Made by a program: the position numbers and the translations under genes | Shown here: positions 10,944 to 49,971 of the stretch, piece by piece | Numbering within the stretch: the first letter of the stretch is position 1 | Layout: each line of letters starts with the position of its first letter | The notes under the pieces: generated by a model | What the model saw: the letters and a program-made list of their open reading frames with translations, nothing else | Database searches by the model: none | Told to the model about the DNA's origin: nothing | Origin: Catajapyx aquilonaris | Taxonomy: Eukaryota | Assembly: GCA_000934665.2 (NCBI GenBank) | Contig: JYFJ02002929.1 | Coordinates: 1 to 51,990, forward strand | DNA: 51,990 bases | Direction: 5' to 3'

Positions 10944-13578
10944 TCAGAGGGACAAGGCCGGGGGTGATGTCTGCCGCCTTTTGATGACGCTTTGACGGTG
11001 CAGGTCGGACTTGTTACATACGGTGACCGTCCCACTCTGGGTCACCGGAGGACTGTTCTTCCCTATAAGCGTCCCAAACATCTTGGACACCGAGAACTTC
11101 CGGGTCTTCTGCAAACTGTTGAGGCTGCGGCACTCAGTTATGAGATATTCAAAGGCCTGGTACACCTCAAAGCTGTTCTCGGCCACGGACACCTCAAAGA
11201 AGTGGCATCCAGCTTGCAATGCTGCAGTACGACCTTCGACCTCTTCCACCTTTGAAACAAACGGATCATTAGACTCAAGCCGGGACACCACAGCCAGATC
11301 AACTCACCTCTCGTAAGTGCTCCAAATCACTCTTGTTGCCCAGAAGGACCACAGGCATGTTGTTGACGGTACGGATTTTCTGCAGATTCTCCAGTGCTTC
11401 CAACGCATAATGAAATGACGATTTGTCCGTAATGGAATAGACCACAACGCAGGCGTCCGCCCATTGAACTTGTTCCAGAGGAAAGGTCGTGTCACTCTGA
11501 AATGAACAGAACACGCTCATTAAAATAATTATTTTATGTGGCGTTTCAGTCGACCCCGATTGCACACCCAGTTCATAACCCTGACTTTGGCACCGGCTCT
11601 AAACCACAAACTAGCAGTTAGGACCAGTTCCAGAATCTGCAAGGCTGGTGCCATTGCCCAAAAGAGGGTGTGACGAAACCCCCCTTTTAAAGTCTAGATT
11701 TGTACTCACCGGTCCGTTGGAGACGTCTATAATCTCAGCTTCTAGAGAGGCGTTGTTGATGCTAACCACTTGCCGGTACAGTAAATCTGCAGAAGAAGAC
11801 AGGGACTCTTGCAACATTACCGTCAAGGGGAACATCTGGGTCGCTGACTCACAGGCCATTTAACCATTTTACACGACCCCACCCCCTCACCCGTTGGCAC
11901 CTTCCTAACATACTACGTCTCATTATTCCGTCTCCAAAGAAAAAAAAGAAGAGGAGGAAGAAGCTACATGGCGACGGTATTCCGAAGTTTATATATCGGG
12001 ACGATCTGGAGAGGAAATTCGCAAGGTCACCTTGCGCGTGTGTTCCAAATCTGCTCTCTAGTGACGTTCCTCCAAAGTTTTTTTAAAACTCGACTCAATG
12101 AAACCAGGTACGGAAATGGGTCCGGTAGAGGGCATCGTGCTTGTACTGACCCCTATCGGATGGGCGGATAAACTTCCGCATATTTGTGCCGTACCTAACA
12201 GACGCGTATGTAATTCGTCCCATCCCCACTTCTAAATGCCCATGGAAGTTTGATATATAGGTGGGGTCAAAAACTCAATAACTCACAATTTTGCACGGTG
12301 TTTTAGAGCGGTTGTTCTAAGCAAATACGTGCCTTGGCAGCAGCCTTTTCTGAAGGAGGACCATCTCCATAGGCAAAGTGCCAAGGTTCCTCGATGAGCG
12401 ATCAGCTGATTAAATTTAGGAGAAGGAAGACGCCCGGCGCCTGTAGTTTTTTGGAAAGTCCAACTAGTGATTGTGGCGCCGTCTGTGTCCAAAAAAAGAA
12501 CCATTGTTGACAAAACTACAATAGAAAGTTGCACTGGCCATATAACCCAATGTTTACGTTGGAACTAGTGGCAAGACTTGAAAATGCCTCCACGTCTCAT
12601 ATATCGACCAAAGAGTGGTCATAAAATGTTGAGGGAATTCCCTGACGTAACTAGAGCATGATTTCATTTCAGGGTTGTTAATTGCCGTTGGGGATTGGAT
12701 ACATAAATGATTTGTTGTGTAGCCGTCCTATATTTAGGAGCGGTCAGAAATTATATCACTATTCCCAGGGAGCTTCCGCAAATAATGGAGTTACGAGAGA
12801 AAAAAAGGTGCGACCTTGACTTTTTTTTTGTGGTCTACTGCTATGTCCGGAGCCTTCGGACATTTCCGGCGCCGAATTGCTACCAGATTGCTTCTGTTTC
12901 CCCCCAAGAAGTTGGCCATTTGCCCACTACTGAAATTCGCACTTTATGGGAGACCTTTCTTACGACAGGACAAACATGCGGAGGAATTGGGACGATAAGT
13001 CATCAAGCGAACCTCGAACCCGCTCTTTTTGGCTTTCGAAACTTGCTAAGGCCATTTGGGCATATTATGATTAAATTTGGCCAAATCGTGGATATGGGTG
13101 AGTCAGCTCCCATTGAATACAAAACACCCCAGAAGTGGAGCAAGTAAACTTACCAGTGTTTGATCGGTATTCCCCAATGAACCGTTTGGTGAGGTACCGC
13201 ACCGTCAGGGCTGTAAAGACATAGAAAAATATATGTCAAGTCAACAATGAACCTTTCCGGTTTTAGCAGCTCAGAAAACCAGGTCAAAAGGACTATCCAC
13301 GCAGTCTGGGGAAATCCCCCTTGGTCGTAACTCATGACATTAGTGAGAAATTGGGGTCATGTTGTTATCTTCTTGGCAATTTGTAACCTCCCCTGAACTA
13401 TCCCAGTAGCCTACAATCCTAGATGTCTGAGCCGTTTTTGGCACCAGCCACCCCCCACCTAGTGCCTTCCTAAATAAAAGAAAATGGGTGTGTCCTCACC
13501 TGATTTGCCCACGTTGCACCTGCCCAACACAGCTATTCGCACTCTGAGGTGACCTGGGTTCTTCTCCTCTGTCCTCAT
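10944..13578 (-). CDS. RERG/RERGL/RASL11-12 family Ras-like small GTPase, 5 coding exons, ~235 aa
   Basis: Exons (minus) 13578-13500, 13210-13154, 11786-11710, 11496-11308 and 11249-10944 have GT-AG boundaries and sum to 708 nt in frame. Protein: MRTEEKNPGHLRVRIAVLGRCNVGKS-ALTVRYLTKRFIGEYRSNT-DLLYRQVV..IIDVSNGP-..QWADACVVVYSITDKSSF..VVLLGNKSDLEHLRE-V..FFEVSVAE. 'ALTVRYLTKRFIGEY' and 'WAD.CVVVYSITD' are typical of the RERG/RASL11/12 group. In-frame upstream ATGs exist (ORF from 13692). A donor-like GGTAAG at 13800 suggests a 5' UTR intron instead. Confidence 0.9.
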
Positions 13579-37130: not shown

Positions 37131-39546
37131 TTATGAGGTAACGACCTCAGTCCCGCCATCAAATTCAAGTTTGACCCCTTCCCCAAGTCCCTCCACATCC
37201 ACTTCAGATTCAGGTGCATTAAGCATGTTGAGCGTGACTTCTGATGCTTTTCCAATCATGGCCTGTTGTTGCGTTGTAACGACAGTAGCAGGTGCTGCTG
37301 AAACCGCAGTTTGTACTGGTAATCCTGCATCTTCAAATGCCTTCTTCTTCAATGCTGTCCTTATCTGGGATCTGTAAATGATGATAAGGAATTTTTGAAC
37401 AGGTACACTCGAAGAGGACATGGAAAGAAATGGAGATGCTTGGAAACTTACACAGTCCTGGTCTTGATTCGCTCACTTATCTTGTTCAGATCATCCCCAA
37501 ATTTTCTGATGGACTGTCTCAGCATCTCAATTTCCTCCTCTGTCCACTTGGTCCTGAAGTGTAAATGGCAATCAGTCTCATGTGTATGACATGCGATATG
37601 AAACATGAAATACCTCAACTCTACAGTTGAATATCAGTTTCATTGAGTAGGTTTCACAATGTAATTGCTAACTTCCACATCTCTTTAGATATTAATGCCA
37701 AAAATTTTAGTATGGCATAAAGGATGTGTTCAATTAGTCATTTTAATAACTGCATTTCAGTTACACTGACAATTAACTCTTCTTACCCTCCTAAACTTTG
37801 AAATTTTTTGGATTTTCTAATTCTGCTTGGCCTATACAGTAGTGTTGTGCAAACATCCCCTGTGCTGCTAATTTTCATGTCAAAATACAAGCTTAATACA
37901 ATATTCTGAAGCCACAACACCTAGCAGCCAGTCGTGGGTCACAGGTCCCTGGTCGCCGCGACTTTAGCGCACTCTAGGGTGGCGCGAGCAAGTAGAATAT
38001 GACCTCACACACTTCGAAATCGATTTTGTGTAGCAATATATGAATCAAGTTTAATCAGTCATTTACATATCGCTGATATCAGTCGCGACGATCCGTGACC
38101 GGCGACCCGCCACCTGTGACCGGATTCAGGTGTTGTGTCTTTGGAATTTCGGTTTTTTGGCTTGTATTTTGACCCTGCTAACGTGAAAATTAGCAGCAGA
38201 AGTGATGTTTGCACAACACTATAGGTCAAGCAGAATTAGAAAATCCAAAATTTTCAAAATTTAAGAGGGTAAGAAGAGTTAGTTTGGTTGTGAGTCTCTA
38301 TCTGTATTTCCCATTGCCAGAGTAAGAAAAATGAAGAAACATCTCTGCATGATTCAAAAATGATCCAAAAGGCAATTTCGTGACATTGAGAAAGTAATGT
38401 GCTAATATCACTTAATATTTCATAAAAATCATTATCAGTGGTTTCTTTTGGCTAAGTCAGACAGGAATTATCTCGAACCATGAGAGGTCATACATTTATT
38501 GCTGGTTTAGTGCATAGCAAGCCAAATCCCTTGTGCAACATTTTTAGTGTAATGATTTAATACCGAAGCAGTTTGGAGGAGGGGACATGGTGTCCGACTG
38601 CTAATTGGGAGGTCTTGGGATCAAATCCCGGGGCCGGCAACTCTGACCGTGATTTTCTGTGGTTTCCCACGGTCCTTCCAGGAAAATTCCGGAGTTGCTT
38701 CTGTAATTAATAGGCCACAGCCGCTTCCTTCTGTCCCTATCCTATCCCAAAAGAACACAGTAAAATGAAAAGCAAAGAGTTCCAGGCAAAACAAACCCCC
38801 CCCCCCCCNAAAGAGCCGATGGCTGATAAGGGGGTATGAATTATTATTATAGCGTAATGATTTAATAAGTGAATGTAATTAATTTTAAAAATGCAGCAAC
38901 ATGAGTAATTAGTACAATAGAAAGTTCTCACACATGGACTTTGGTACCGATATTATTAATTTTTTCAGATGCCTCATGCCTTCCTGAGACATATTTACTC
39001 TTGTCGTGTAGCATAATACCATGAGAGCGATATCATCACCATGTACTTTTATACTGTGTGGCTAAGAAAATCAGGGGGTTTTGCCTGTACATGCCTATAC
39101 CAAACTCCAAGGTCCATGGAGATGCAACAATGTAAATCACTGCCTGACATGAATGTAAATAACCTGCCAATTTATTTAAATTAAGCCTCATTATTTCTGT
39201 GTAAATTAACCCAAATGAGGCAGTACTTGCGTTGTAATTGACTATAGCAAGCCCGCATTTTCACACCTCCAGCAAACAAGTGCAACCTTGCCGGACATAA
39301 CTACATCAAAAGCCTGCTGGAGACAACCTTCCAGCAGCCTGCCTCACAACGTTCATGCAGTGCTCTTGGACCATTTACCCCGAGGGCGAGTCAGCAGTGG
39401 GATGCAGCTGCATTGTCAGGTCACCCAGCTTGGAGAAGGCCGCTCCAGCCGCCGCGAAGATCTCCCCAACCTGCAACCAACAACCAGTCAAATCCTTATA
39501 CCCAAACATATCGCCAGTGAAGCCAAACCTTGCTGGCCGAATTCAT
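37131..39546 (-). CDS. BAP18: Chromatin complexes subunit BAP18 (C17orf49 ortholog; SANT/Myb-like domain), 4 exons, 150 aa
   Basis: Exons (minus) 39546-39529, 39470-39379, 37553-37452 and 37371-37131 are GT-AG bounded and sum to 453 nt. Protein: MNSASK-VGEIFAAAGAAFSKLGDLTMQLHPTADSPSG-TKWTEEEIEMLRQSIRKFGDDLNKISERIKTRTV-SQIRTALKKKAFEDAG..VTLNMLNAPESEVDVEGL. This closely resembles the recalled BAP18 sequence (VGEIFSAAGAAFTKLGELTMQLHP..KWTETEIEML). A minus-strand AATAAA lies at 37014-37019. Confidence 0.93.
37774..38281. mobile_element. ~510-bp long-TIR foldback MITE in BAP18 intron 2
   Basis: TAACTCTTCTTACCCTC..TTTTGGATTTTCTAATTCTGCTTG..GTGTTGTGCAAACATC..GTCAAAATACAAGC is mirrored by GCTTGTATTTTGAC..GATGTTTGCACAACAC..CAAGCAGAATTAGAAAATCCAAAA..GAGGGTAAGAAGAGTTA. 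The arms exceed 110 bp and the flanks are TTAA/TTAG, possibly piggyBac-type. Confidence 0.8.
38562..38748 (+). mobile_element. tRNA-derived SINE resembling Lm1/Talua-type insect SINEs, in BAP18 intron 2
   Basis: A decayed tRNA head with B-box-like GGGATCAAATCCC is followed by GATTTTCTGTGGTTTCCC..CCAGGAAAATTCCGG..TAGGCCACAGCCGCTTCCTT. This matches the recalled body of that SINE group; no search was run. Confidence 0.7.
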
Positions 39547-39871
39547 ATTTTGGCCCGTCCAAAGGTCATCAGTACCGCACAAAACAAAGCTAGCCCTAGA
39601 TATCACACGGCCACCCGACGCTTCATCAAACCAGCCAATCAGTGCTTGCGGACGGCTCCAAATGTGGCGCCGTGTAATACCCAATCCAGACGTGGACAAC
39701 CGATCGTGCCCTCTGACCTTGCACTTAGAGACATTCCGAGTGCGAGAAAAACAAATTGATTTATCTGCAAAAAATCGTAGATATGGTTGTTTTGAAGAGT
39801 GGTTGGTTGGAGAGTCCGAGTGACGACAGACAGCTGATCGGTTATAAATACAGGCGGGAGTCATGTGAAAG
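39547..39871. promoter_or_regulatory. Bidirectional promoter region shared by BAP18 and MFSD1
   Basis: The two ATGs diverge with only 325 bp between them. The interval is relatively CpG-rich and has a CCAAT box (AGCCAATCA, ~39633-39641) and GTCATGTGA at 39860-39868. Confidence 0.75.
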
Positions 39872-42800
39872 ATGGCTTCAGAGGAAGGCAGGAGTCTCCT
39901 TGCGGAGGAGCAGGTGGAACAGATCATGGGCAGCCCAGGGTACGACTCCGATGGAGGAGGAGGAGAGAAAACGGGAAGGGAACCGGAGGAGCTGACGGGA
40001 TGCGGGGCCTCGGCCTGCTGCGACCCCAGCAGGGCCGCCCATAGGTTCATCGCCCTGCTCTTCATGTGCTTCCTAGGATTTGGTGAGCATATGCTGCTGA
40101 GGGTGTTATGCAAAAATTAATCAGAGTGTTATGGAAGGGTTGAAGGAGGGTTACTCAATGGGTTATCATGGGGGTGAGGGACAAAGTTTGCGGAAGGGAG
40201 TGCGCCGACCTGGGAGTGGCAGGGGAGGGCGGAGGACGGGTGGCCAGGATGGGGTTTGGTCAAGTTCGGGGGTGCGGGGATGTGGACGGATGGGGTCACG
40301 GTGCGGAAAGGGCCCAGCATATGGTGGGGGGTCAGTGGATGCGGCTGGTGGATTCAAATGTTCCATCGTAATGAAGCTGTCGTGAACGCTATTGAGCCCG
40401 TGCAATAAACACATTGATTATGAAGGGGTTGTTCATTAAGCAATTTCTGGGACTTACAAGGCAAAATGTAAACACTGCAAGTGTCAAGGGGCATCCAGGG
40501 CAAGCCATGACCTCTGCCTGGTATGCGGGATAATTTTGTAACGTAACTGCGCTAATACATACATACTGTAATCGCAACAAACTGATTACAATTTGCAGCC
40601 CATTAAAATGTATGGAATAGACAGCATTCAAGTTGCGACACTGGACAATTTTTAAATTGATGTGTTGTCAAATTTAATCGCATGAATTTTAGTTTACAAA
40701 TTGTGATGACTTTAAAACAGGGAATAGAATTCCTTCTGTTTTGCAGGCGAAACTATTCAAACTATATTTGACAGGTGGGGATCAAACGAAGTAAAACAGG
40801 AATATGGGATTTGTCGCTGCAGAGTTGTATTAATCACAGTGTGTCATGCTATGCATTGCATCCTGCCGATGGGTGAACAATAAAATAAAACGACAAATTT
40901 CCATGCAGACGAGGTCATATTACAAATGTGTCACATTAAGTGCGGGATAAAGATATGGCAGGTAATGGACAGATTCTGCAGTGGACTGTGACAGATATGT
41001 ATACCATAAGCCTGCCACCCACTTGTTTTTGTTTTCCACCACCAGATAAAAGTCCAGCATGAGTCACAAGTCACAAGTGATTTATATGCATATAGAAAAA
41101 ATCTGGCTCTAGAAATGCACTCAGCTTTCACGTGCTTTCCTGTTTATAACCAGTGGGATAGGAGACAGACTTCCGCTCTCCTTTTTCCTCTTTGTGTCTC
41201 TCTCCATCTGTCTCACTTTTGAATCTTCTATATCCAGATAGCCATAGTTGCTTTGGCTTCTTCACAATAAATCCTAAACCCTATGACCAATATGAGGGAA
41301 ATTGAGGCGGTTATTTTAAATTGTGATGGTAAACAAATACTGATCACATGCAAATGTGAAAAAAGGGAATTATCACGACAGTGATATTGTTTTGAACGAG
41401 TGCATTCACCTCTTTCTTGCAAACTGAAAAGTCGAGAAAAATGTACAGTGGGCACTACGTAGCCATGGGTGATTGGAATCATGCCAGTGTTCTGCTTGCT
41501 CAAGTTAGTTACAAACTTTAAGATTAACCATCTGGAGTCATGTAATAGAATACAAGTGGCCCAAGGCACCTGATTTGAGATAATCTTTTCCTTATGCTGC
41601 TATCTGGAGATAAAATACATTTTGATAATTCACTTTGGGAAATACGGGCTTGCTTCACTGGTACAACAACAACTTTAATGACCATTAAACTTGTACCTTC
41701 CCAGGATCCTACTTTTGCTATGACAACCCAGGTGCACTTCAAGACCACTTCATTGATGACATGGCCATCTCTACCGCAGAGTACGCCAACCTGTACTCGT
41801 GGTATTCCTGGCCAAATGTGGTGTTATGCTTTATTGGAGGTTTCCTGATTGACAGGTGCGACTAGTCATCCACTTGACTGGCCATTGCTAATTTTTCTTC
41901 TTAACCTCGTAGGGTGTTCGGCATCAGGGTGGGCACCATCATCTTCTCTGGGTTTGTCCTTGTTGGCCAGCTGATTTTTGCATTAGGAGGGCTGGTGGAT
42001 CGCTTCTGGGTCATGGAAGCTGGACGATTTGTGTTTGGGTAAGCCAGTTGGATAGAAACTTACTAACATGTTGATGTGTCACGAGGAAATATTATGGAAT
42101 AGTAAAGCCCTAAATAAATATTAGCAACTTATTTGCGTGCAATTGAAAAAGCAAAGTCATGGCCTCCACACATGCACCCTTTGCACACAAACAGCCTCTT
42201 ATCAAGGTCAACTATTCACTCACTTGAGGTTGCATAAGACATAACATTCTTCACACTAGCTCACTCAGAGTGCCTTCCTGAGTACCTGTGCTGCGTTGGC
42301 AATTTACTTGTTGATGTTGACAGATTTAGCAATACTGATGAAAGAATTGAATAATTTATTAATAAATTCTTGTGACACTTGCCGTTAGCCGTTAGTATAA
42401 TATTACATTGAGTAATTCGATAATTTCTCGATTCAAATTTGTAGAATTGGAGGTGAATCTCTTGCTGTGGCCCAGAACACATATGCAGTGAGCTGGTTCA
42501 AAGGGAAGGAGCTAAACATGGTGTTTGGACTTCAACTCAGCTTCTCCAGGGTTGGCTCCACTGTCAACTTCTTGGTGATGGAGACTGTCTATGAATATGT
42601 CAACGAGACATACAAGGGCGCAACTTGCATGGGGATCGTCCTTATGATTGCTGCATCCACTTGCATCCTGTCTTTGGCCTGCGCACTCATTTTGGGATTT
42701 ATGGACCGTAGAGCTGAGCGGATTCTCAGGCGTGAGAAGCCGCACAATGAAGCTGTGCGCCTCACTGACATAAAGGACTTTCCATTGTCCTTCTGGCTAA

Positions 42801-45131
42801 TTAGCCTTATATGTGTGTCATATTATGTAGCCATCTTTCCATTTGTGGGACTAGGGAAGGTTTTCTTTGAGCGCAAGTTTGACTTTGCACCCAAGAGTGC
42901 AAACACAGTGAACAGCATCATTTACATCATTTCGGCAGTGGCCTCACCATTGCTTGGGTTTCTGGTAGATCGGACTGGACGTAACGTGTTCTGGCTGCTG
43001 GTGGCAGTGGTTGTCACTCTGGCAGGGCATGCCCTGCTTGCCTTCACCTACATCAATCCATACGTTGCTGTTGTAAGTTTCCTCCAATTGCTGGACATTG
43101 CACTGCATGTGGTGTGCATTTCAATCTTGACTCTCTTCACTTTTTGCCAGGTTGTTATGGGGTTGGCGTACTCCATGCTGGCCAGTGCCTTGTGGCCATT
43201 AGTGGCTCTTGTGGTTCCGGAACACCAGCTTGGTACTGCATATGGAATGTAAGTACATTTGTCTTTCTCCCGGTACACTCTGTATAATGGAAGCTCCCTT
43301 TTCTTTTGCAGAATGCAATCTGTACAGAATCTCGGCCTGGCCATCATCACAATGATTGCTGGGAGGATTGTGGATGACAAGGGTTACCTTGTGCTTGAGG
43401 TGTTCTTCCTTGCCTGGCTTTGTGGTAAGTGTGCAGCATTCTCCGTAATTGTTGAAATGGCACTGATTTGTATCATTTTGGGGCGTGGGTGGGGCGTGAG
43501 GCATAAAAATTATATTCACAGTAAAGGGGTTTCTTGACGTAGTTACACTTTGTAGTTGTATTGAAATCTCAGTAATTTCTGAAGTAGTAAAGAAATTTAA
43601 ATTAGAAAAAATCATCATGATAAAACCAGTTTTTGCAGACATGAGAACTGGGAATAAATGAAAATTGAAAATGATTGTAGAAATAATGGCCTCTCTGCCC
43701 CTGCCATGTATGACTTTTCTTGACCAGGGATTGTAAATGCTAAAGAAATAATGATCTTGCCCTCCTTTTAGTTTGCTTGGTGTCGAGTATCATATTGTGG
43801 CTAACAGATGAAAGCAAACACAGAGTTCTTAATTGTTCGGCAACTGAGCGCAATGCCGTCAAGCTGCATAAGGAGCTGGAGACATCCAAAGAGGTCCTAG
43901 TGGCAACCATAAGTGGGAACTAAATTAAAACTTGCCTTTTAAGATCTGGGGTTTGGACAGGTAAGGCTTAAGTGTACCGAGTCTTACCAAGTGCCTGGTG
44001 ACTTCCAATACCAATGTGACTGAATGGCGCCATTTCTGGAGGGAACACTGGGCTCTAGCCTCATGTGTTTCGTGTATGTGTCTGTGAATCCCACCTCCCC
44101 AAAACGATTTTCTGACTACTTTCAGTGTGTATGGTGTTCAGTGTCGGTTTGTGGGTGGTAGATCGCATTCGAGGGGGTTGTCTGAACATGTCTGCCGTGC
44201 AGCGCGACCAGTTCGAGCAGCATGCGTTCTTGTAAGTGATATTCCATGCTGCAGTCAGTGTATTAAGTTTTCTGTGTTTTATATTATTTTGCAGTTAGGA
44301 AGTCAGGCCCCTGCTCCCTAGGCTTGCCAACAGGGTTTGGGTTACGACTTTTTAAAGGTGCAATCCACAAAATGCTTGCAAGTGGCCTGTCATTATTTAT
44401 TGAATTTTTACATGGGTCAGCTACGGGTTGTCGTAACTGAAACAAGCCCACAATTAGAATTTATGCAGGCAAGTATGTTGTGTACGAACCTAGTCTGTGC
44501 TCGAATGACAATACACTTACTCTTGACATTCTTGTAGAAATTTTAAAAATTATAGAACTGTGATAAAGACTATCAGTGAAATGAATGGAACATGTCACAA
44601 AAATGCACACACGTTTTGAATATGAAGTGTTGAAAAATCCTTTTTCAATAAGAGTGGTTGGCAAGCCTATCCTTCCCCAGTTTTCTTCACCCCTTTTGAA
44701 ACAGATATGAAGCGAGCATGTCCTTTCAAGGGTGGAAGAGAACGTAGAGACGGATAGACCCTTTGCAGCTGGTGCCCTGCCTACTTCACCTCATTGGGCC
44801 CTCCCTTCGGACTTCATTATGCGCAATAGGTTCTTGTCACGTATTGGGGCCAATGTGAGTACACGCCATTGCTCTAAGCATGCGTCATGGGCAGAGGTAT
44901 ATGGGCACAGAACACGTGAGAATTCCATCAGTTGTGTGTGCTTCTTATTGTTGCTTCCTATTTATGTAATGCATTGTTTTATATAACTTTTTAAAATATA
45001 CTCTGTATAAAATGACATTATAACATGTTGATTACTGAAACAGACCCGATTGATTTCCCCGTCTCTTTCAGCTCCCTACCCACTATGATCCCACCACACG
45101 CGCACTGAGATTCCGTCCCCACCTGAGCTGA
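39872..45131 (+). CDS. MFSD1: Major facilitator superfamily domain-containing protein 1 (lysosomal dipeptide transporter), long isoform ~538 aa
   Basis: Exons 39872-40082, 41705-41855, 41913-42038, 42445-43072, 43151-43248, 43312-43424, 44126-44231 (7b), 44731-44854 and 45072-45131 sum to 1617 nt in frame with GT-AG junctions. Motifs: CDPSRAAHRFIALLFMCFLGFGSYFCYDNPGALQ, YSWPNVVLCFIGGFLIDRVFGIR, GRFVFGIGGESLAVAQNTYAVSWFKGKELNMVFGLQLS, QLGTAYGIMQSVQNLGLA. An N-terminal dileucine sorting motif (EGRSLL) is present. Confidence 0.93.
43772..43923 (+). CDS. MFSD1: Alternative terminal coding exon 7a of MFSD1 (short isoform ~492 aa)
   Basis: Acceptor 'ctccttttag' ends at 43771 and is phase 1, matching the exon 6 donor. 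It encodes VCLVSSIILWLTDESKHRVLNCSATERNAVKLHKELETSKEVLVATISGN*, which is colinear with exon 7b (12/27 identical residues). Confidence 0.75.
44319..44669. mobile_element. 351-bp hAT-like MITE in the MFSD1 intron between exons 7b and 8
   Basis: Perfect 13-bp TIRs TAGGCTTGCCAAC / GTTGGCAAGCCTA. The 8-bp flanks match only partly (CTGCTCCC / TCCTTCCC). Confidence 0.7.
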
Positions 45132-45294
45132 AACCTGCGGAGCTGCCCTTGTGGGGGGCTGCCCCGGGGTGCACTTCTTTCATCGCTACTGGGTGTCGTG
45201 CCATGTCCTCCCCCCACCTTATATTCCACTTCCCCCAGTTAAGGTCAGCACAGGTGTCGTGTGATAGGTGTGCATTCAATGTGATAAGTGTTAA

Positions 45295-45431
45295 CCCCTT
45301 AAATACTTATTGCAAAATTGCAGCTAGAAAGTGTAGGTGGCATTGCCATACAAAGTACCATGTTTAAATTCAAGTGTTGCCACCTTTTGAGAAGGCATGA
45401 AATTATAGATTTTTCCACAGTAATTAAGGGG
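45295..45431. mobile_element. Small piggyBac-like MITE remnant downstream of the MFSD1 stop codon
   Basis: TTAA|CCCCTTAAATACT ... AGTAATTAAGGGG|TTAC gives CCC-starting TIRs with TTAA-like flanks. Confidence 0.5.
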
Positions 45432-45861
45432 TTACAAAAATACAACAAGAACTAGGGCTTTTCCCCTGATGTTCTCAGGTAAAATTTGTGAAGGTACTAG
45501 TCTGTGTGTGCAAATGCATGCAATTTGAAGTGACGTACTGAAGCTACTCTGGAAATACGGTCATAACTCTCCCAATGACATTGGGCCAAGGTTGACATGA
45601 TACCAAGTTGTATAAACTTGCCACAGTGATAATATGCATATCAGTAAATTTTTGCTTGCTTGCAAAGTAGCAACACTTTTTGCATATGACATGTAGGACA
45701 CTAGTCCAGAGGTTGAAGGTTATCCATTAGGGTAAAGCGGAAGGGAAGGTTCACCCTTTCACTCGAATGTGTACAAAAGAAGTAACTTTTTTGAATGACG
45801 GTATTATTTATAAGATGTACTATTTTTATTATGTGTTCTGGTACCGTACTATACTGACTTT

Positions 45862-45937
45862 TGAACCCCACGGGTTGTGAATCCCAAATATCATGAATCC
45901 CACGTAAACGAATCCCAAATGTTGTGAATCCCAAATT
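45862..45937. repeat. Five-unit 15-16 bp minisatellite with GAATCCCA core
   Basis: tgaaccccacgggttg tgaatcccaaatatca tgaatcccacgtaaa cgaatcccaaatgttg tgaatcccaaatt. Confidence 0.75.
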
Positions 45938-46789
45938 GTTTAGTCATCAGATTCTGACATCTGTGAATGACATACCCTGCACTTAAATGTCAATGTCAGG
46001 CATTTCTGGCAAGTAGTATCAAGAACTGTGTAAAGGAAGACTATTATTGGGCAAGCGAGATGAGGTCAAGCAAATGTGAGCCCATATCATTTTTGAAGCC
46101 ATGTACTCATTTTAAAAAGTTTCTTTTTGTTGGTTATGTCTGTTGCACCATGTAAATGAAAAGCCGCTGTAAGTGGGAAAATCTTGCAACAAATATTCAC
46201 TGCTATGCGAGCTATAAAATGAAAAGTTGTCACTGCTTGTATGTAATTATGTCATCAATAACTTGTTGTAATGCTGACTGTACGTATTAGTGATTATAAA
46301 TTGGAGAAAAAACATGCTATTTGTTGTAGTGCATGTTGTAGACTGTCAGTTATGATTATTGTGTAACAACATCTGGAGGAAATTGTATTCATTTGTTGAC
46401 TTTTTCTCTGTTGTATTTGAATTAAGTGTTTGAAATGTTGTGCAGCAACAAAAAAAAAAAGGTGTGGCAGGTAATCACAGCGGATGGTGCAAACAAGAGA
46501 TACTCACCTGTGTAATGTAAATACATGTTGTTTGGCCACTGCCAGAAAGTCGTTTTAATTTAGGACAACCCTCTACACCTTTGAACCACCGTTTTTGTTG
46601 CTCAGGTGCCAAGTGGTGAATACGACTTCGTATGTTGCTTTCACCGAAGCGAGTGCTGCGCTAACAAGTTGCTACATAAAGTGTGGCTTTGACCCACTAG
46701 CAGGTCACAAGGCCCTTCCTGGTTATCCAAGTGGTTACCTATGAACTTTTTTATTTAAAAATAAATCAATTCTGTTAGAAAACCTGAGA

Positions 46790-47015
46790 AGCTGATTGGA
46801 TTTGGCGCCACGTGTCAGCTGCCACCTGGTGGCGGAGGTGGCTCAACTCCTTTCCGTGAATGAGTGGTAGGTCGTGGTTGGCATAACAGGTTGATCTTCG
46901 GTGTTTCCGTCTGGGTGTTTCTTTCGGTGTCCTTTTACCCCCGGTGGGTGATGGTTTGGTGGTAGAGGCAGGGTCATCGGATAGGGCAGTCAGAGGAGAG
47001 GGGCATCCGGAAGGG
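46790..47015 (+). promoter_or_regulatory. ALG9 promoter region with CCAAT, CREB3-like and CTCF-like motifs
   Basis: ATTGG at 46795-46799, GCCACGTGTCA at 46807-46817 and minus-strand CCACCAGGTGGCAG within 46816-46835, about 200 bp upstream of the ATG. Confidence 0.55.
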
Positions 47016-49971
47016 ATGGGTCCGAAGAGGGGCAGCTCGAAGGGTGCAAGGAGCAGGAACAAGGCTGTCCAGACCACTTCCTCTGTCAAGGAGGGACAGC
47101 AGCAGGGCAAGGACATCAGCAGGAGGAGGGACAGGTGGGTCTGGCCCATCACCTGATGGCTGTGCTATTGGTTTTATGTGTTTAACCAGGTCAGCTGTGA
47201 GGCTGATTGTGTATCCCTTTTTTTCTGTTCTTTATAGGGATGCGATGGGTGTGGTAGGGAGCTCCGTCAAATCATGGGCATCGTGCACCCCAAGTGGATT
47301 TACTGCGTTCAGAACGCTGCTGACTGTACGCCTGGTGTCAGCCCTGTGGAACAATGTTTCTGATTGTGATGAGACCTACAACTACTGGGAGCCAGTGAGT
47401 GAGTGTGGAGACATGCCAGAATTCTCGGACAGTCATAGTGATGTAATCTTCTCTTCTTTCTTTATTCTCTCTTTTTGAGTAGACACATTTTCTTCTGTTT
47501 GGATCTGGATTCCAAACATGGGAATATGCACCCCAGTATGCACTAAGGTCATACGCATACCTGCTCACAATGTGGCTGCCGGCATGGATATACTGGAATT
47601 TGCTCCGCCCTGATAAAGTACTCGTATTCTACATACTGCGGTGTTTGCTTGGATTCTTCTGTGCCCTGTGTGAAGCCTATTTCTATGTGTACGTACAGCT
47701 GTGTCTCATTGTGCTTCTTGCAATGGATTTGGCTGCATCCTTGGAGCAGGTAGTCCTCACATCATTGGGTGGATGTCACTGAAAATCTGGGATGCCAAAT
47801 CCACAGCTGAAGCTTCCTTTGTAACTTCATTCCCATCAGTTGGGGGAATGTCAGTTCATGGGGTGAGGGTTGTGCGAGTGAAGGTGCATTTTGTCATGCC
47901 TTCTAAACCAGGTGGTTGGTTGGTTGGGTGAGCCACTCTGGACAGTACTTTTTATTTTGTTTGATGGGCATTATAGTTTGTACGTTCAGTGAAACCTATG
48001 CATAATTGATTAATCAGAAACATGGTTTTCCAGGCAGAGAGGCTTTTCAATGTATTTTACCATTTTGCAGGGGTGTGTGCAAGGAATTTGGCATCCATGT
48101 GGGCCGACTCACACTGGCCTTCATGGTATTCGGAGCAGGGATGTTCATCTCCAGCACAGCTTACCTGCCATCATCCTTCTCAATGTACATGTGTCTCCTA
48201 TCCATGGGCGCATGGTACCAGCGTAAGGATGAGCTCTCTGTATTTTCCACAGCCCTCTCTGCTATTCTCAGCTGGCCGTTTGCTGGTGCCCTGGGCATCC
48301 CCATTGCCTATGATCTGGTATTCAGACGCCACAGAGCCTCCACATTTCTTGTGTGGTGTGCTGTCTCACTAGCTGCCATCCTGTTGCCTGTGGTGTATGT
48401 GGACTCGCAGGTGTATGGACGGGCTGTGGTCGCACCACTCAACATTGTGCTGTACAACGTCTTCTCTAAGCATGGGCCTGATCTTTACGGGACAGAGCCG
48501 ATCTCTTACTACCTAGTCAATGGCTTTCTCAACTTCAACTTTGTGTTTGTGGCAGCCCTTGTCGTTGGCCCTGTGCTCTACTACGTGCACTGGATGCTGC
48601 CATATGAGAGGAAAGACACCCTCCCGTACTGGCTGTCTCTTCTCCCTTTGTACCTTTGGGTGGGCATATTTTTCTCCCAGCCACATAAAGAAGAACGGTT
48701 CCTGTTCCCAATATACCCACTGTTCTGCGTGGGAGGTGCTCTGACCTTTGACCGCCTGCAGAAGCTGTGGTACCACATGTTTGTTGCCAGGAAAGTGGAG
48801 CACTACCTGAAACCTACCCAGTGGCTGGCAATCGTAGTGGTGGTCATCTGCTCAGCCCTCAGCATCTCCAGGATCCTCGCTCTCTATAAAGGTAAGAGAC
48901 TTTGCATTGAAGACTTTCTAGAGGTGAGAACATAAATTGCTGTGTTGTTGTAAGGCAAGTTTTGATTACATCTTTGATTATTTGTGTTTCTTGCAGGTTA
49001 CCATGCTCCCATTGATGTCTTCATGGAGTTGAACAAGAGAGTGGCAGCTGGGGATCTTCCATCTGACAAGTCTCTTGTACTGTGCTATGGAAAGGAGTGG
49101 TACCGGTTTCCATCCAGATTTTTCCTACCTGATTCCAAGTGAGTTACGTGGATTTTCACCACTAGACCATGGTATTATCCAATTTGCTGTGTGCCACAGT
49201 TGGGACGTCCGCTTCATCCAGTCCGAGTTCAATGGCCAGCTGCCTCGGGCCTATGATGTGGACTCACCTAATGCCACGTCCCTCATACCAGATGATGTGA
49301 ATGACATGAACAAGGAAGAAATGAACAGATACGTTGACGTGAAGAAGTGTCACTTCCTAGTGGATTTGGACTCACCCAACGAGTCAGAGCTGGAGCCCAG
49401 ATATTCAAAAATGACCTCAGACTGGAAGGTTTTTTATTCAGTCCCATTTATGGATGCATCCAAGTGAGTTCATTTTATACTTCTCTCCCATGAGGTGGTG
49501 ATAGGAGTAAGGTTAAGAGGTGCCGTAGTTCATTCTGGCATCCAGAGATGGAGTTGAATTCCTGATTTGATATTTTGTGCCGACTCGTGGTTCATTCGAA
49601 TTTCATCTTGTGGACCTCCATTATGCCATTTTACCATAATTTGGGCTAGCCGAGTTAGCCGGAGTTAAGATCATTTGAGAACTTCAGGATATCAGTTTAT
49701 TGTAAGGATTTGGTAAAAATCTCAACTTTGTGAGCATGAAGTATCCCCATACATCCATGAATTACCTTTCTCTCATTGCATGTTGGTTATTTTAGTGCAA
49801 AGCAGGTGTTCTAGCGCACTAGACTTCTTACATGAGGTCTTGTGTTGCAGGTCTCATCGGATTCTCAGAGCTTTCTACATACCCTGGTTAACGGAGCATC
49901 ATTGCAGTTATGTTGATTACAATTTGTTGATATCTACAAGGGTTAAGCTTAGGAGGAGTGGTGATAGGTGA
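47016..49971 (+). CDS. ALG9: Alpha-1,2-mannosyltransferase ALG9 (GT22), 7 exons, ~609 aa
   Basis: Exons 47016-47134, 47238-47394, 47483-47688, 48071-48891, 48997-49138, 49200-49463 and 49851-49971 sum to 1830 nt in frame. Motifs: SDCDETYNYWEP-THFLLFGSGFQTWEYAPQYALRSYAY, SSTAYLPSSFSMY, GPDLYGTEP, QPHKEERFLFPIYP, GKEWYRFPS, FIQSEFNGQLP, RAFYIPW. The start codon and first exon are the least certain parts. Confidence 0.94.

Follow-up and report, generated by a model that had tools for sequence, protein, structure and literature searches.

Two homologous tail exons and predicted alternative C-termini in the MFSD1 gene of Catajapyx aquilonaris

Introduction

Alternative C-termini derived from tandem exon duplication are a well-described phenomenon in membrane transporters, and a new instance will be a small surprise to the specialist. 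According to the available text of Martinez-Gomez et al. (NAR 2021, PMC8373072), duplications within the 3' coding sequence can yield homologous C-termini, and over half of the events are located at transcript ends. The available text of a second study (GBE 2022, PMC9741552) states that the substitutions derived from tandem exon duplication are mostly ancient and are enriched in transmembrane transport proteins, and that convergent events have occurred in vertebrates and invertebrates; the string 'MFSD' does not occur in that text. Here we describe a duplicated exon in the MFSD1 gene of Catajapyx aquilonaris, which is located in a stretch of 51,990 bases (contig JYFJ02002929.1; hereafter, the window).

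MFSD1, a protein of the major facilitator superfamily (MFS) with 12 transmembrane helices (TM1 to TM12), has only recently been shown to be a lysosomal dipeptide exporter, and the work so far has dealt with the short mammalian form. Based on the available text of Jungnickel et al. 2024 (PMC11252000), dipeptide uniport, the partner protein GLMP and the lysosomal location are known for mouse MFSD1. In the structure of the mouse MFSD1-GLMP complex (PDB 8R8Q) both termini are cytoplasmic, a GLMP helix adjoins the C-domain, and residues 446-464, which follow TM12, are unmodelled. The word 'isoform' does not occur in the available text of that paper, and that of the Drosophila Minerva paper contains no passage on isoforms of the gene. 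Among the papers listed by our literature searches, none dealt with exon duplication, mutually exclusive exons, C-terminal isoforms or tails of MFSD1, or with the splicing of MFSD1 in the springtail Folsomia candida. One preprint, in the part available, names human MFSD1 as one of the genes that have complex dual-coding regions but says no more about it.

In the window, the exon that encodes the cytoplasmic end of TM12 and the first part of the C-terminal tail is present in two copies, 7a and 7b, and the acceptor of the upstream copy is used in transcripts. The reading that we favor, with a probability of about 0.65, is that this tandem duplication of the MFSD1 tail exon works through alternative acceptors to give two C-termini.

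The two copies of exon 7

Exon 6 ends at 43424 in a phase-1 donor (GTG/GTAAGT), and is followed by two AG acceptors, at 43770-43771 and 44124-44125, each of which opens an exon 7 copy that begins in phase 1. Exon 7a (43772-43923) encodes 50 residues followed by a TAA, and exon 7b (from 44126) encodes 36 residues followed by a TAA at 44233-44235, which overlaps a GTAAGT donor at 44232. When this donor is used, the junctions 44231>44731 and 44854>45072 hold the frame open to a stop at 45129-45131. The predicted proteins comprise 492 amino acids (aa) with 7a, 478 aa with the short form of 7b, and 538 aa with exons 7b, 8 and 9. An earlier prediction made on this DNA (the original prediction) had given the latter two lengths, which proved right on recomputation. 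It should be noted that the in-frame stop over the 7b donor is not special, because a GTAAG or GTGAG donor produces one in every phase-2 intron; three springtail loci described below likewise show it.

Transcript evidence comes from one public run, X1, whose kind is unrecorded and which is available as contigs only (31.8 million letters). It contains 0.47 of the sampled words of 39800-45400, and its contigs were aligned on 39500-46500. Contigs can merge isoforms and drop rare variants, and they give no levels, ends or strand. The gene is laid out as follows, with the evidence for each element in brackets.

39872..40081, + strand: MFSD1 exon 1, coding part from the ATG (open reading frame, ORF; run X1 contig covering 39874-40081; joint 40081>41704; tblastn with orthologues)
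41704..41853, + strand: MFSD1 exon 2 (run X1 contig piece with GT..AG joints)
41911..42037, + strand: MFSD1 exon 3 (run X1 contig piece and joints)
42444..43072, + strand: MFSD1 exon 4, 209 full codons, used as search query (run X1 contig piece; orthologue matches)
43151..43248, + strand: MFSD1 exon 5 (bounded by joints 43072>43151 and 43248>43312)
43312..43424, + strand: MFSD1 exon 6, first half of TM12, phase-1 donor (sequence, ORF, run X1 contig)
43772..43923, + strand: predicted coding part of exon 7a, second half of TM12 and a 37-residue tail, TAA at 43921-43923 (tblastn; run X1 joint 43423>43771, cut +1; 18.5 bits to the main-type profile)
43924..44125, + strand: spacer of 202 nucleotides (nt) from the 7a stop to the 7b acceptor, with ATTAAA at 43924 and a donor-like CAG/GTAAGG at 43960/43961 (inside the contiguous run X1 piece 43771-44854)
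44126..44231, + strand: predicted exon 7b, main-type second half of TM12 and tail start, with TAA at 44233-44235 if the donor is unused (tblastn; 40.5 bits to the main-type profile)
44731..44854, + strand: exon 8, with the conserved tail motif SDF..RNRFLSRIGA (orthologue alignment; donor use from run X1 joint 44854>45072)
45072..45131, + strand: coding part of exon 9 (LPTHYDP...) and stop (orthologue alignment; run X1 contig from 45072 onward)
45132..46780, + strand: 3' untranslated region (3'UTR), its probable end estimated from an AATAAA at 46760 (run X1 contig covering 45072-46500; hexamer scan)

The coverage of the 3'UTR up to 46500 reflects the limit of the stretch compared. The spacer merits a comment of its own: its donor-like CAG/GTAAGG, 37 nt past the 7a stop, could make 7a an internal, stop-bearing cassette that is spliced to 7b. 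No joint from this donor (43960) was seen among those of the run X1 contigs.

The original prediction held that the acceptors at 43771 and 44125 open homologous exons, with 12 of 27 residues identical in the first stretch, and both the coordinates and this count are confirmed; over full codons, 12 of 34 residues are identical. When each peptide was compared by tblastn with the whole window, its counterpart was recovered with E 4e-5 to 7e-5; no further match appeared below E 0.3. Thus, the 51,990 bases hold exactly two copies and no third, and the match between them is beyond chance. Independent tblastn matches to 7a were obtained with the orthologues P0105, P0021 and P0001. A profile of main-type exons, built from 147 exons and including neither window rows nor alternative-type rows, scores 40.5 bits on 7b and 18.5 bits on 7a. 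Exon 7a keeps the W..D and LN.S..R positions of the family and the hydrophobic end of TM12. Judged by sequence, 7a and 7b are true homologues of the MFSD1 TM12/tail exon, and they constitute a pair of adjacent homologous exons of equal phase, each predicted to be able to join exon 6. The acceptor of 7a is no weaker than that of 7b in its upstream tract (15 versus 14 pyrimidines in 20 positions).

Exon 7 can be placed in the protein by means of isoform X1 of Folsomia candida MFSD1, which aligns to the mouse chain 8r8q_A at E 4.7e-170 and puts the border between exons 6 and 7 at chain residues 428 and 429. Assuming that the chain follows UniProt numbering, this alignment indicates that exon 7 corresponds to about 17 ordered residues, at the cytoplasmic end of TM12, and a flexible cytosolic tail. 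It provides only the last ~12-13 residues of TM12, the first half of the helix being encoded by exon 6. The proposal that splicing swaps TM12 therefore holds in part: the exon does carry the end of the helix, but what is predicted to be exchanged is about half of it and not the whole.

Transcripts of the locus

A run X1 contig of 2,401 letters comprises exons 1-4 and exon 6, and joins exon 6 to 43771 (cut +1). The joint, from 43423/4 to 43771/2, is an exact GT..AG joint with 112 letters on its shorter side. From 43771 to 44854 the same contig is unbroken and carries 7a, the 202-nt spacer, 7b, the intron between 7b and 8, and exon 8. A further joint, 44854>45072, together with a contig that covers the compared stretch from 45072 onward, shows that the exon 8 donor is used. 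In all, run X1 gave seven GT..AG joints; two of these bound exon 5, although no exon 5 piece is among the listed pieces of the 2,401-letter contig. As introns are missing at GT..AG borders, we infer that the contigs derive from spliced RNA; a DNA retrocopy as their source would still report an mRNA.

The 7a acceptor is used in transcripts, as an upstream alternative acceptor. The splice into 43772 that the original prediction had called for is thus present. Its description of 7a as a terminal exon needs qualification: the stop of 7a does end the protein, but in run X1 7a is not a separate terminal exon, since the contig runs on through 7b and exon 8, and is then spliced to exon 9. Because the 7a stop ends the reading frame while the contig reads on through 7b, exons 7b to 9 are 3'UTR in the observed transcript. 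The observed transcript does not carry exactly one of the two copies, both being present in the piece 43771-44854.

Several other features of the run X1 contigs may be mentioned. The intron 44232-44730, between 7b and 8, is retained within the long contig, and the intron 44855-45071 is found both spliced (44854>45072) and unspliced (contig 44825-45101). With respect to the window there are three base differences (43351, 44570 and 46113) and an omission of seven bases at 44578, showing that the haplotype of run X1 is not that of the assembly; none of the differences lies inside 7a or 7b. Finally, many contigs match 41230-41271, in intron 1, at 90-95% likeness and with loose ends on both sides, and this is probably an expressed dispersed repeat.

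Age and constraint of exon 7a

Between the paralogues 7a and 7b the synonymous divergence (dS) is 1.15-1.39. On this measure the exon duplication is old, as the original prediction supposed. A crude simulation of neutral decay, which takes 7b as a stand-in for the ancestor and applies uniform random substitutions without insertions or deletions, was run 3,000 times to the observed 50 differences in 102 bases. The frame remained stop-free in 664 of the 3,000 runs, none of which reached 18.5 bits; a second stop-free set gave 0 of 376. At least 12 identical residues were kept in only 38 of the 3,000 runs. When fewer changes were placed on the 7a branch (2,000 runs per setting), the stop-free runs reaching 18.5 bits numbered 1 of 542 for 40 changes, 10 of 683 for 30, 44 of 819 for 25 and 133 of 963 for 20, and the joint chance of an open frame and 18.5 bits was 0.022 for 25 changes and 0.067 for 20. 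Exon 7a retains more family signal than simulated neutral decay, in agreement with the earlier proposal that it has been kept under selection.

Database searches with the 7a peptide gave no close relatives. In a collection of 5.8 billion proteins, searched for its longer proteins, no candidate shared three 5-residue words with it, and the tail region of Folsomia isoform X3 retrieved its own cluster only. Among 1.84 billion representatives, the 7a peptide had two matches (E 2.5e-4 and 5.1e-4); these are proteins with a W.AD..NHRVL-like repeat, not MFSD1, and we consider them spurious.

The conserved tail encoded by exons 7b, 8 and 9

A motif of the form R[NK][RK][YF]..[RK][IVLT] is present in the last 110 residues of 74 of the 120 best orthologues, and the longer motif SDF..RNRYLSRIGA.LP.HY recurs in insects, Daphnia, horseshoe crab, centipede, amphioxus, lamprey and fish. 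The product of exons 7b, 8 and 9 aligns to this long-tail motif, exon 9 (LPTHYDP...) being closest to the springtail version. In RefSeq, Culicoides, Folsomia and lampreys have both short and long isoforms with a common TM12 exon; the long tail is often annotated as the long member of such an MFSD1 isoform pair. In view of the conservation of the motif across orthologues and of the long RefSeq isoforms, exons 7b, 8 and 9 are the ancestral end of the gene. We found no discussion of a long C-terminal extension in the available texts of the mouse structural and Drosophila Minerva papers on MFSD1 (PMC11252000 among them). The 7a form, as follows from its sequence, does not contain the conserved tail motif.

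A parallel arrangement in springtails

The cluster members of ten orthologues led to three RefSeq isoforms of Folsomia candida MFSD1 (XP_021961116.1, XP_021961117.1 and XP_021961118.1). One TM12 exon is common to isoforms X1 (534 aa) and X2 (490 aa), and isoform X3 (485 aa) has a different, homologous TM12 exon that ends the protein. The tail of X3 type is also present in the Orchesella protein P0032 and the JGI protein P0013, so that proteins ending in the alternative type occur in three collections (P0127 from RefSeq, P0032 and P0013).

Scanning metagenome contigs with exon 4 yielded 80 loci. When 144 TM12-exon peptides were compared with these by tblastn, two places were found in L021 and in L030, and the double copy of L026 was found by reading its DNA. 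A scan with the profile gave strong double matches (each E 1.3e-7 or better) in four of 81 sources, namely the window, L021, L026 and L030. Two weak matches each in L023 and L054 look like one exon split in distant eukaryotes, and a single match was obtained in the Daphnia loci L019 and L020 and in the ant-relative loci L016 and L017. In a tree of 33 rows, L021, L026 and L030 fall inside the springtail clade (support 100).

In these three loci exon 6 ends in phase 1 before a GT. The alternative copy follows an AG in phase 1, remains open for 48-53 residues and has its own stop, and the main copy begins 54-65 nt past that stop, also after an AG and in phase 1. Exon 8 is present downstream in all three, and exon 9 in L021 and L026. 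A separate poly(A) site for the alternative form is hardly conceivable within so few bases, and this form must therefore depend on selection of the upstream acceptor, which parallels what is seen in the run X1 contig. The three springtail loci thus contain open positional counterparts of 7a, and such counterparts are also present in three proteins. Among springtails, the proportion of nonsynonymous differences (pN) is 0.44-0.61 for alternative exons versus 0.17-0.30 for main exons, so the alternative exons evolve faster; pN is below its synonymous counterpart (pS) in the pairs with L021, and cross-species dS on alternative exons is saturated in four of six pairs.

A tree of the exons (IQ-TREE, LG+G4, 35 aligned columns, 25 rows) groups 7a with 7b of the window (support 84/86). 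Of the six springtail alternative exons, five form a group, with a long beetle branch attached, about which the tool warns. A single clade of all seven alternative exons is 2.59 log-likelihood units worse and is not rejected (approximately unbiased test, p-AU 0.374). The first residue is Cys in both window copies (codons TGC and TGT) and Ser, Ala or Gly in the other 23 rows, which hints, at a single position, at a duplication within the lineage of the window. That the half-helix/tail exon was duplicated independently in springtails and in the window lineage, the new copy being placed upstream with its own stop each time, is a tentative proposal that we regard as rather doubtful.

Identity and surroundings of the gene

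With exon 4 as a query, 1,031 proteins among 3,352 candidates matched at E up to 0.001. The best 120 of these show 60-71% identity (E 2.1e-97 to 1e-83), the named proteins among them are MFSD1, and all have PF07690 and/or PF12832; the closest proteins overall (P0005 and P0013) are 72% identical to the MFSD1 of the window. Over the MFS core the gene can accordingly be classed, by homology, as an MFSD1 orthologue that groups with arthropod MFSD1 in trees. In a FastTree tree of 51 rows (32 named, 18 chosen unnamed and the window, drawn from 121), the window is sister to a springtail and insect group of 26 rows (group support 95, joining fork 84). In the 33-row tree, which includes seven approximate proteins from metagenome loci, it is in an unresolved fork with Daphnia, outside the springtail and insect side of 21 rows (support 94). 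The label 'insect' MFSD1 given to the locus earlier is not upheld, as the trees place it outside springtails plus insects. Judged by these trees, the gene would be that of a non-hexapod arthropod, probably of a pancrustacean.

The introns 43073-43150 (78 nt) and 43249-43311 (63 nt) are very short, have lengths divisible by three and are both skipped in run X1 contigs; the former has no in-frame stop and is read through by the ORF 42416-43249. Downstream, the neighbouring gene, which is on the same strand (46966-48932, +), encodes an Alg9-like mannosyltransferase (Pfam Glyco_transf_22), with a 309-aa exon at E 4.4e-63 and a likely first exon at 46966-47475; it starts only ~200 bases past the AATAAA at 46760. 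Elsewhere in the window, an ORF at 10947-11303 (-) has a weak Ras-family match (20.2 bits, cut-off 21.6) and is possibly one exon of a gene for a small GTPase.

Discussion

The proposed course of events is as follows. Long ago, the exon that encodes the cytoplasmic half of TM12 together with the beginning of the C-terminal tail would have been duplicated in tandem, and the spliceosome would now have two phase-1 acceptors to select from after exon 6. With the upstream acceptor (43771), 7a would be included and translation would end at its TAA, giving a 492-aa protein with a diverged TM12 end and its own 37-residue tail, with 7b, exon 8 and exon 9 untranslated in that mRNA. Choice of the downstream acceptor (44125) would skip 7a and give the ancestral form, of 478 aa if the next intron is retained and of 538 aa, with the conserved SDF..RNR[YF]LSRIGA.LP.HY tail, if it is spliced. 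Use of the 7b acceptor is inferred from conservation; likewise, both proteins may be made, and the isoforms may differ in what the cytosolic tail binds or in where the transporter is located. A difference between the tails in sorting or in the binding of partners is a conjecture.

Several points weigh against this reading. The junctions 43424>44126 and 44231>44731 are not among the run X1 joints, although contigs cannot show absence, so that the case for alternative use rests on the conservation of 7b to 9. The transcript evidence is a single run of unrecorded kind. The ratio of nonsynonymous to synonymous divergence (dN/dS) between the paralogues is 0.46-0.58, and identity by codon position is 0.44, 0.59 and 0.50, position 3 not being below position 1, so that the pairwise comparison alone shows no constraint; with a best relative of 72% identity and saturated cross-species dS, dN/dS on 7a itself is not measurable, and the simulation of decay is crude. 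In addition, the 7a stop is located ~930 nt upstream of a spliced junction and is followed by a long 3'UTR, which could mark the mRNA for decay.

The last point leads to the alternative that survives best, namely that splicing into 7a is unproductive or regulatory and tunes MFSD1 output in the manner of a poison exon, the 7a tail having no protein role of its own. In run X1 the stop precedes the 44854>45072 junction, in an intron-bearing 3'UTR of ~2.6 kb, and the faster evolution of 7a relative to 7b (18.5 versus 40.5 bits), as well as the high pN of the springtail alternative exons, would fit this reading. However, 7a keeps the W..D and LN.S..R positions and the hydrophobic TM12 end beyond simulated neutral decay, none of which is required of a sequence that only has to supply a stop; in the springtail copies the frame is open for 48-53 residues, and proteins ending in the alternative type are found in three collections. 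We consider this explanation improbable.

It is slightly less probable still that 7a is the constitutive end of the protein in the species of the window, and that 7b, 8 and 9 are untranslated and survive as 3'UTR that has not yet decayed. The sole exon 6 junction seen goes to 7a, in a contig that has 7b and exon 8 unspliced, and the first half of exon 8 has lost the LEREKL.ASGSMSD.TP.DLL stretch that most arthropods keep. Against this, 7b scores 40.5 bits, the three exons are compatible in phase and together read open over 96 codons, they preserve an intact SDF..RNRFLSRIGANLPTHYDP core that is close to the springtail version, springtails with the same layout have RefSeq models of both forms, and contigs drop rare variants. 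It is very unlikely that the frame of 7a is open by chance or that 7a is a dead pseudo-exon, with the contig junction an assembly artefact: the region is short (50 codons; by an estimate of ~5.5% stops per codon, ~6% of random frames that long stay open), but it matches 7b at E 4e-5 to 7e-5 and, independently, the orthologues P0105, P0021 and P0001, its GT..AG joint is exact with 112 letters on the shorter side, and three other genomes have the same layout.

Under the preferred reading of two alternative C-termini, the loci of the window and the springtails would mean that some arthropods keep two versions of the TM12 end and the cytosolic tail of MFSD1. Should sorting or partner binding vary between the isoforms, this would provide a natural handle on the routing or regulation of the transporter. 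If, moreover, the independent origin of the two duplications were true, selection would seem to have repeatedly favored an isoform in which the transporter core is kept and the tail motif RNR[YF]LSRIGA.LP.HY is dropped, and the tail, which is conserved from arthropods to lamprey and amphioxus, would be a switchable sorting or regulatory module of a lysosomal dipeptide transporter.

The arrangement can be compared with four known systems. With the C-terminal substitutions derived from tandem exon duplication it shares adjacent homologous exons and, by prediction, isoforms that differ in a short homologous stretch; in the available texts of PMC8373072 and PMC9741552 the C-terminal cases involve alternative polyadenylation or frame-shifting exon skips, whereas in the run X1 contig an upstream acceptor is combined with read-through of the downstream copy. 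Strictly mutually exclusive exons, such as those of Dscam1 (according to the available text of PMC8373072), are likewise tandem homologous exons of equal phase. In contrast to that type, the run X1 contig has 7a and 7b in one molecule, and no mechanism is needed to exclude the second copy, because 7a ends the reading frame.

Mouse MFSD1 (PDB 8R8Q) is an orthologous MFS protein with 12 TM helices; the form described in PMC11252000 differs in ending shortly after TM12 without a long tail. The closest parallel is MFSD1 of Folsomia and the other springtails, known as a case from automatic RefSeq annotation only. There, the same exon of the same gene is duplicated, the alternative copy is upstream (in three genomic contigs) and has its own stop, and the alternative form, like the 7a form, does not carry the long conserved tail; Folsomia isoform X3, known here as a protein, has a tail of the same alternative type. 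The window differs in being outside the springtail clade, in its spacer of 202 nt versus 54-65 nt, and in its acceptors: that of 7a is as pyrimidine-rich as that of 7b, whereas the springtail alternative acceptors (9-14 pyrimidines in 20) are weaker than the main ones (14-16).

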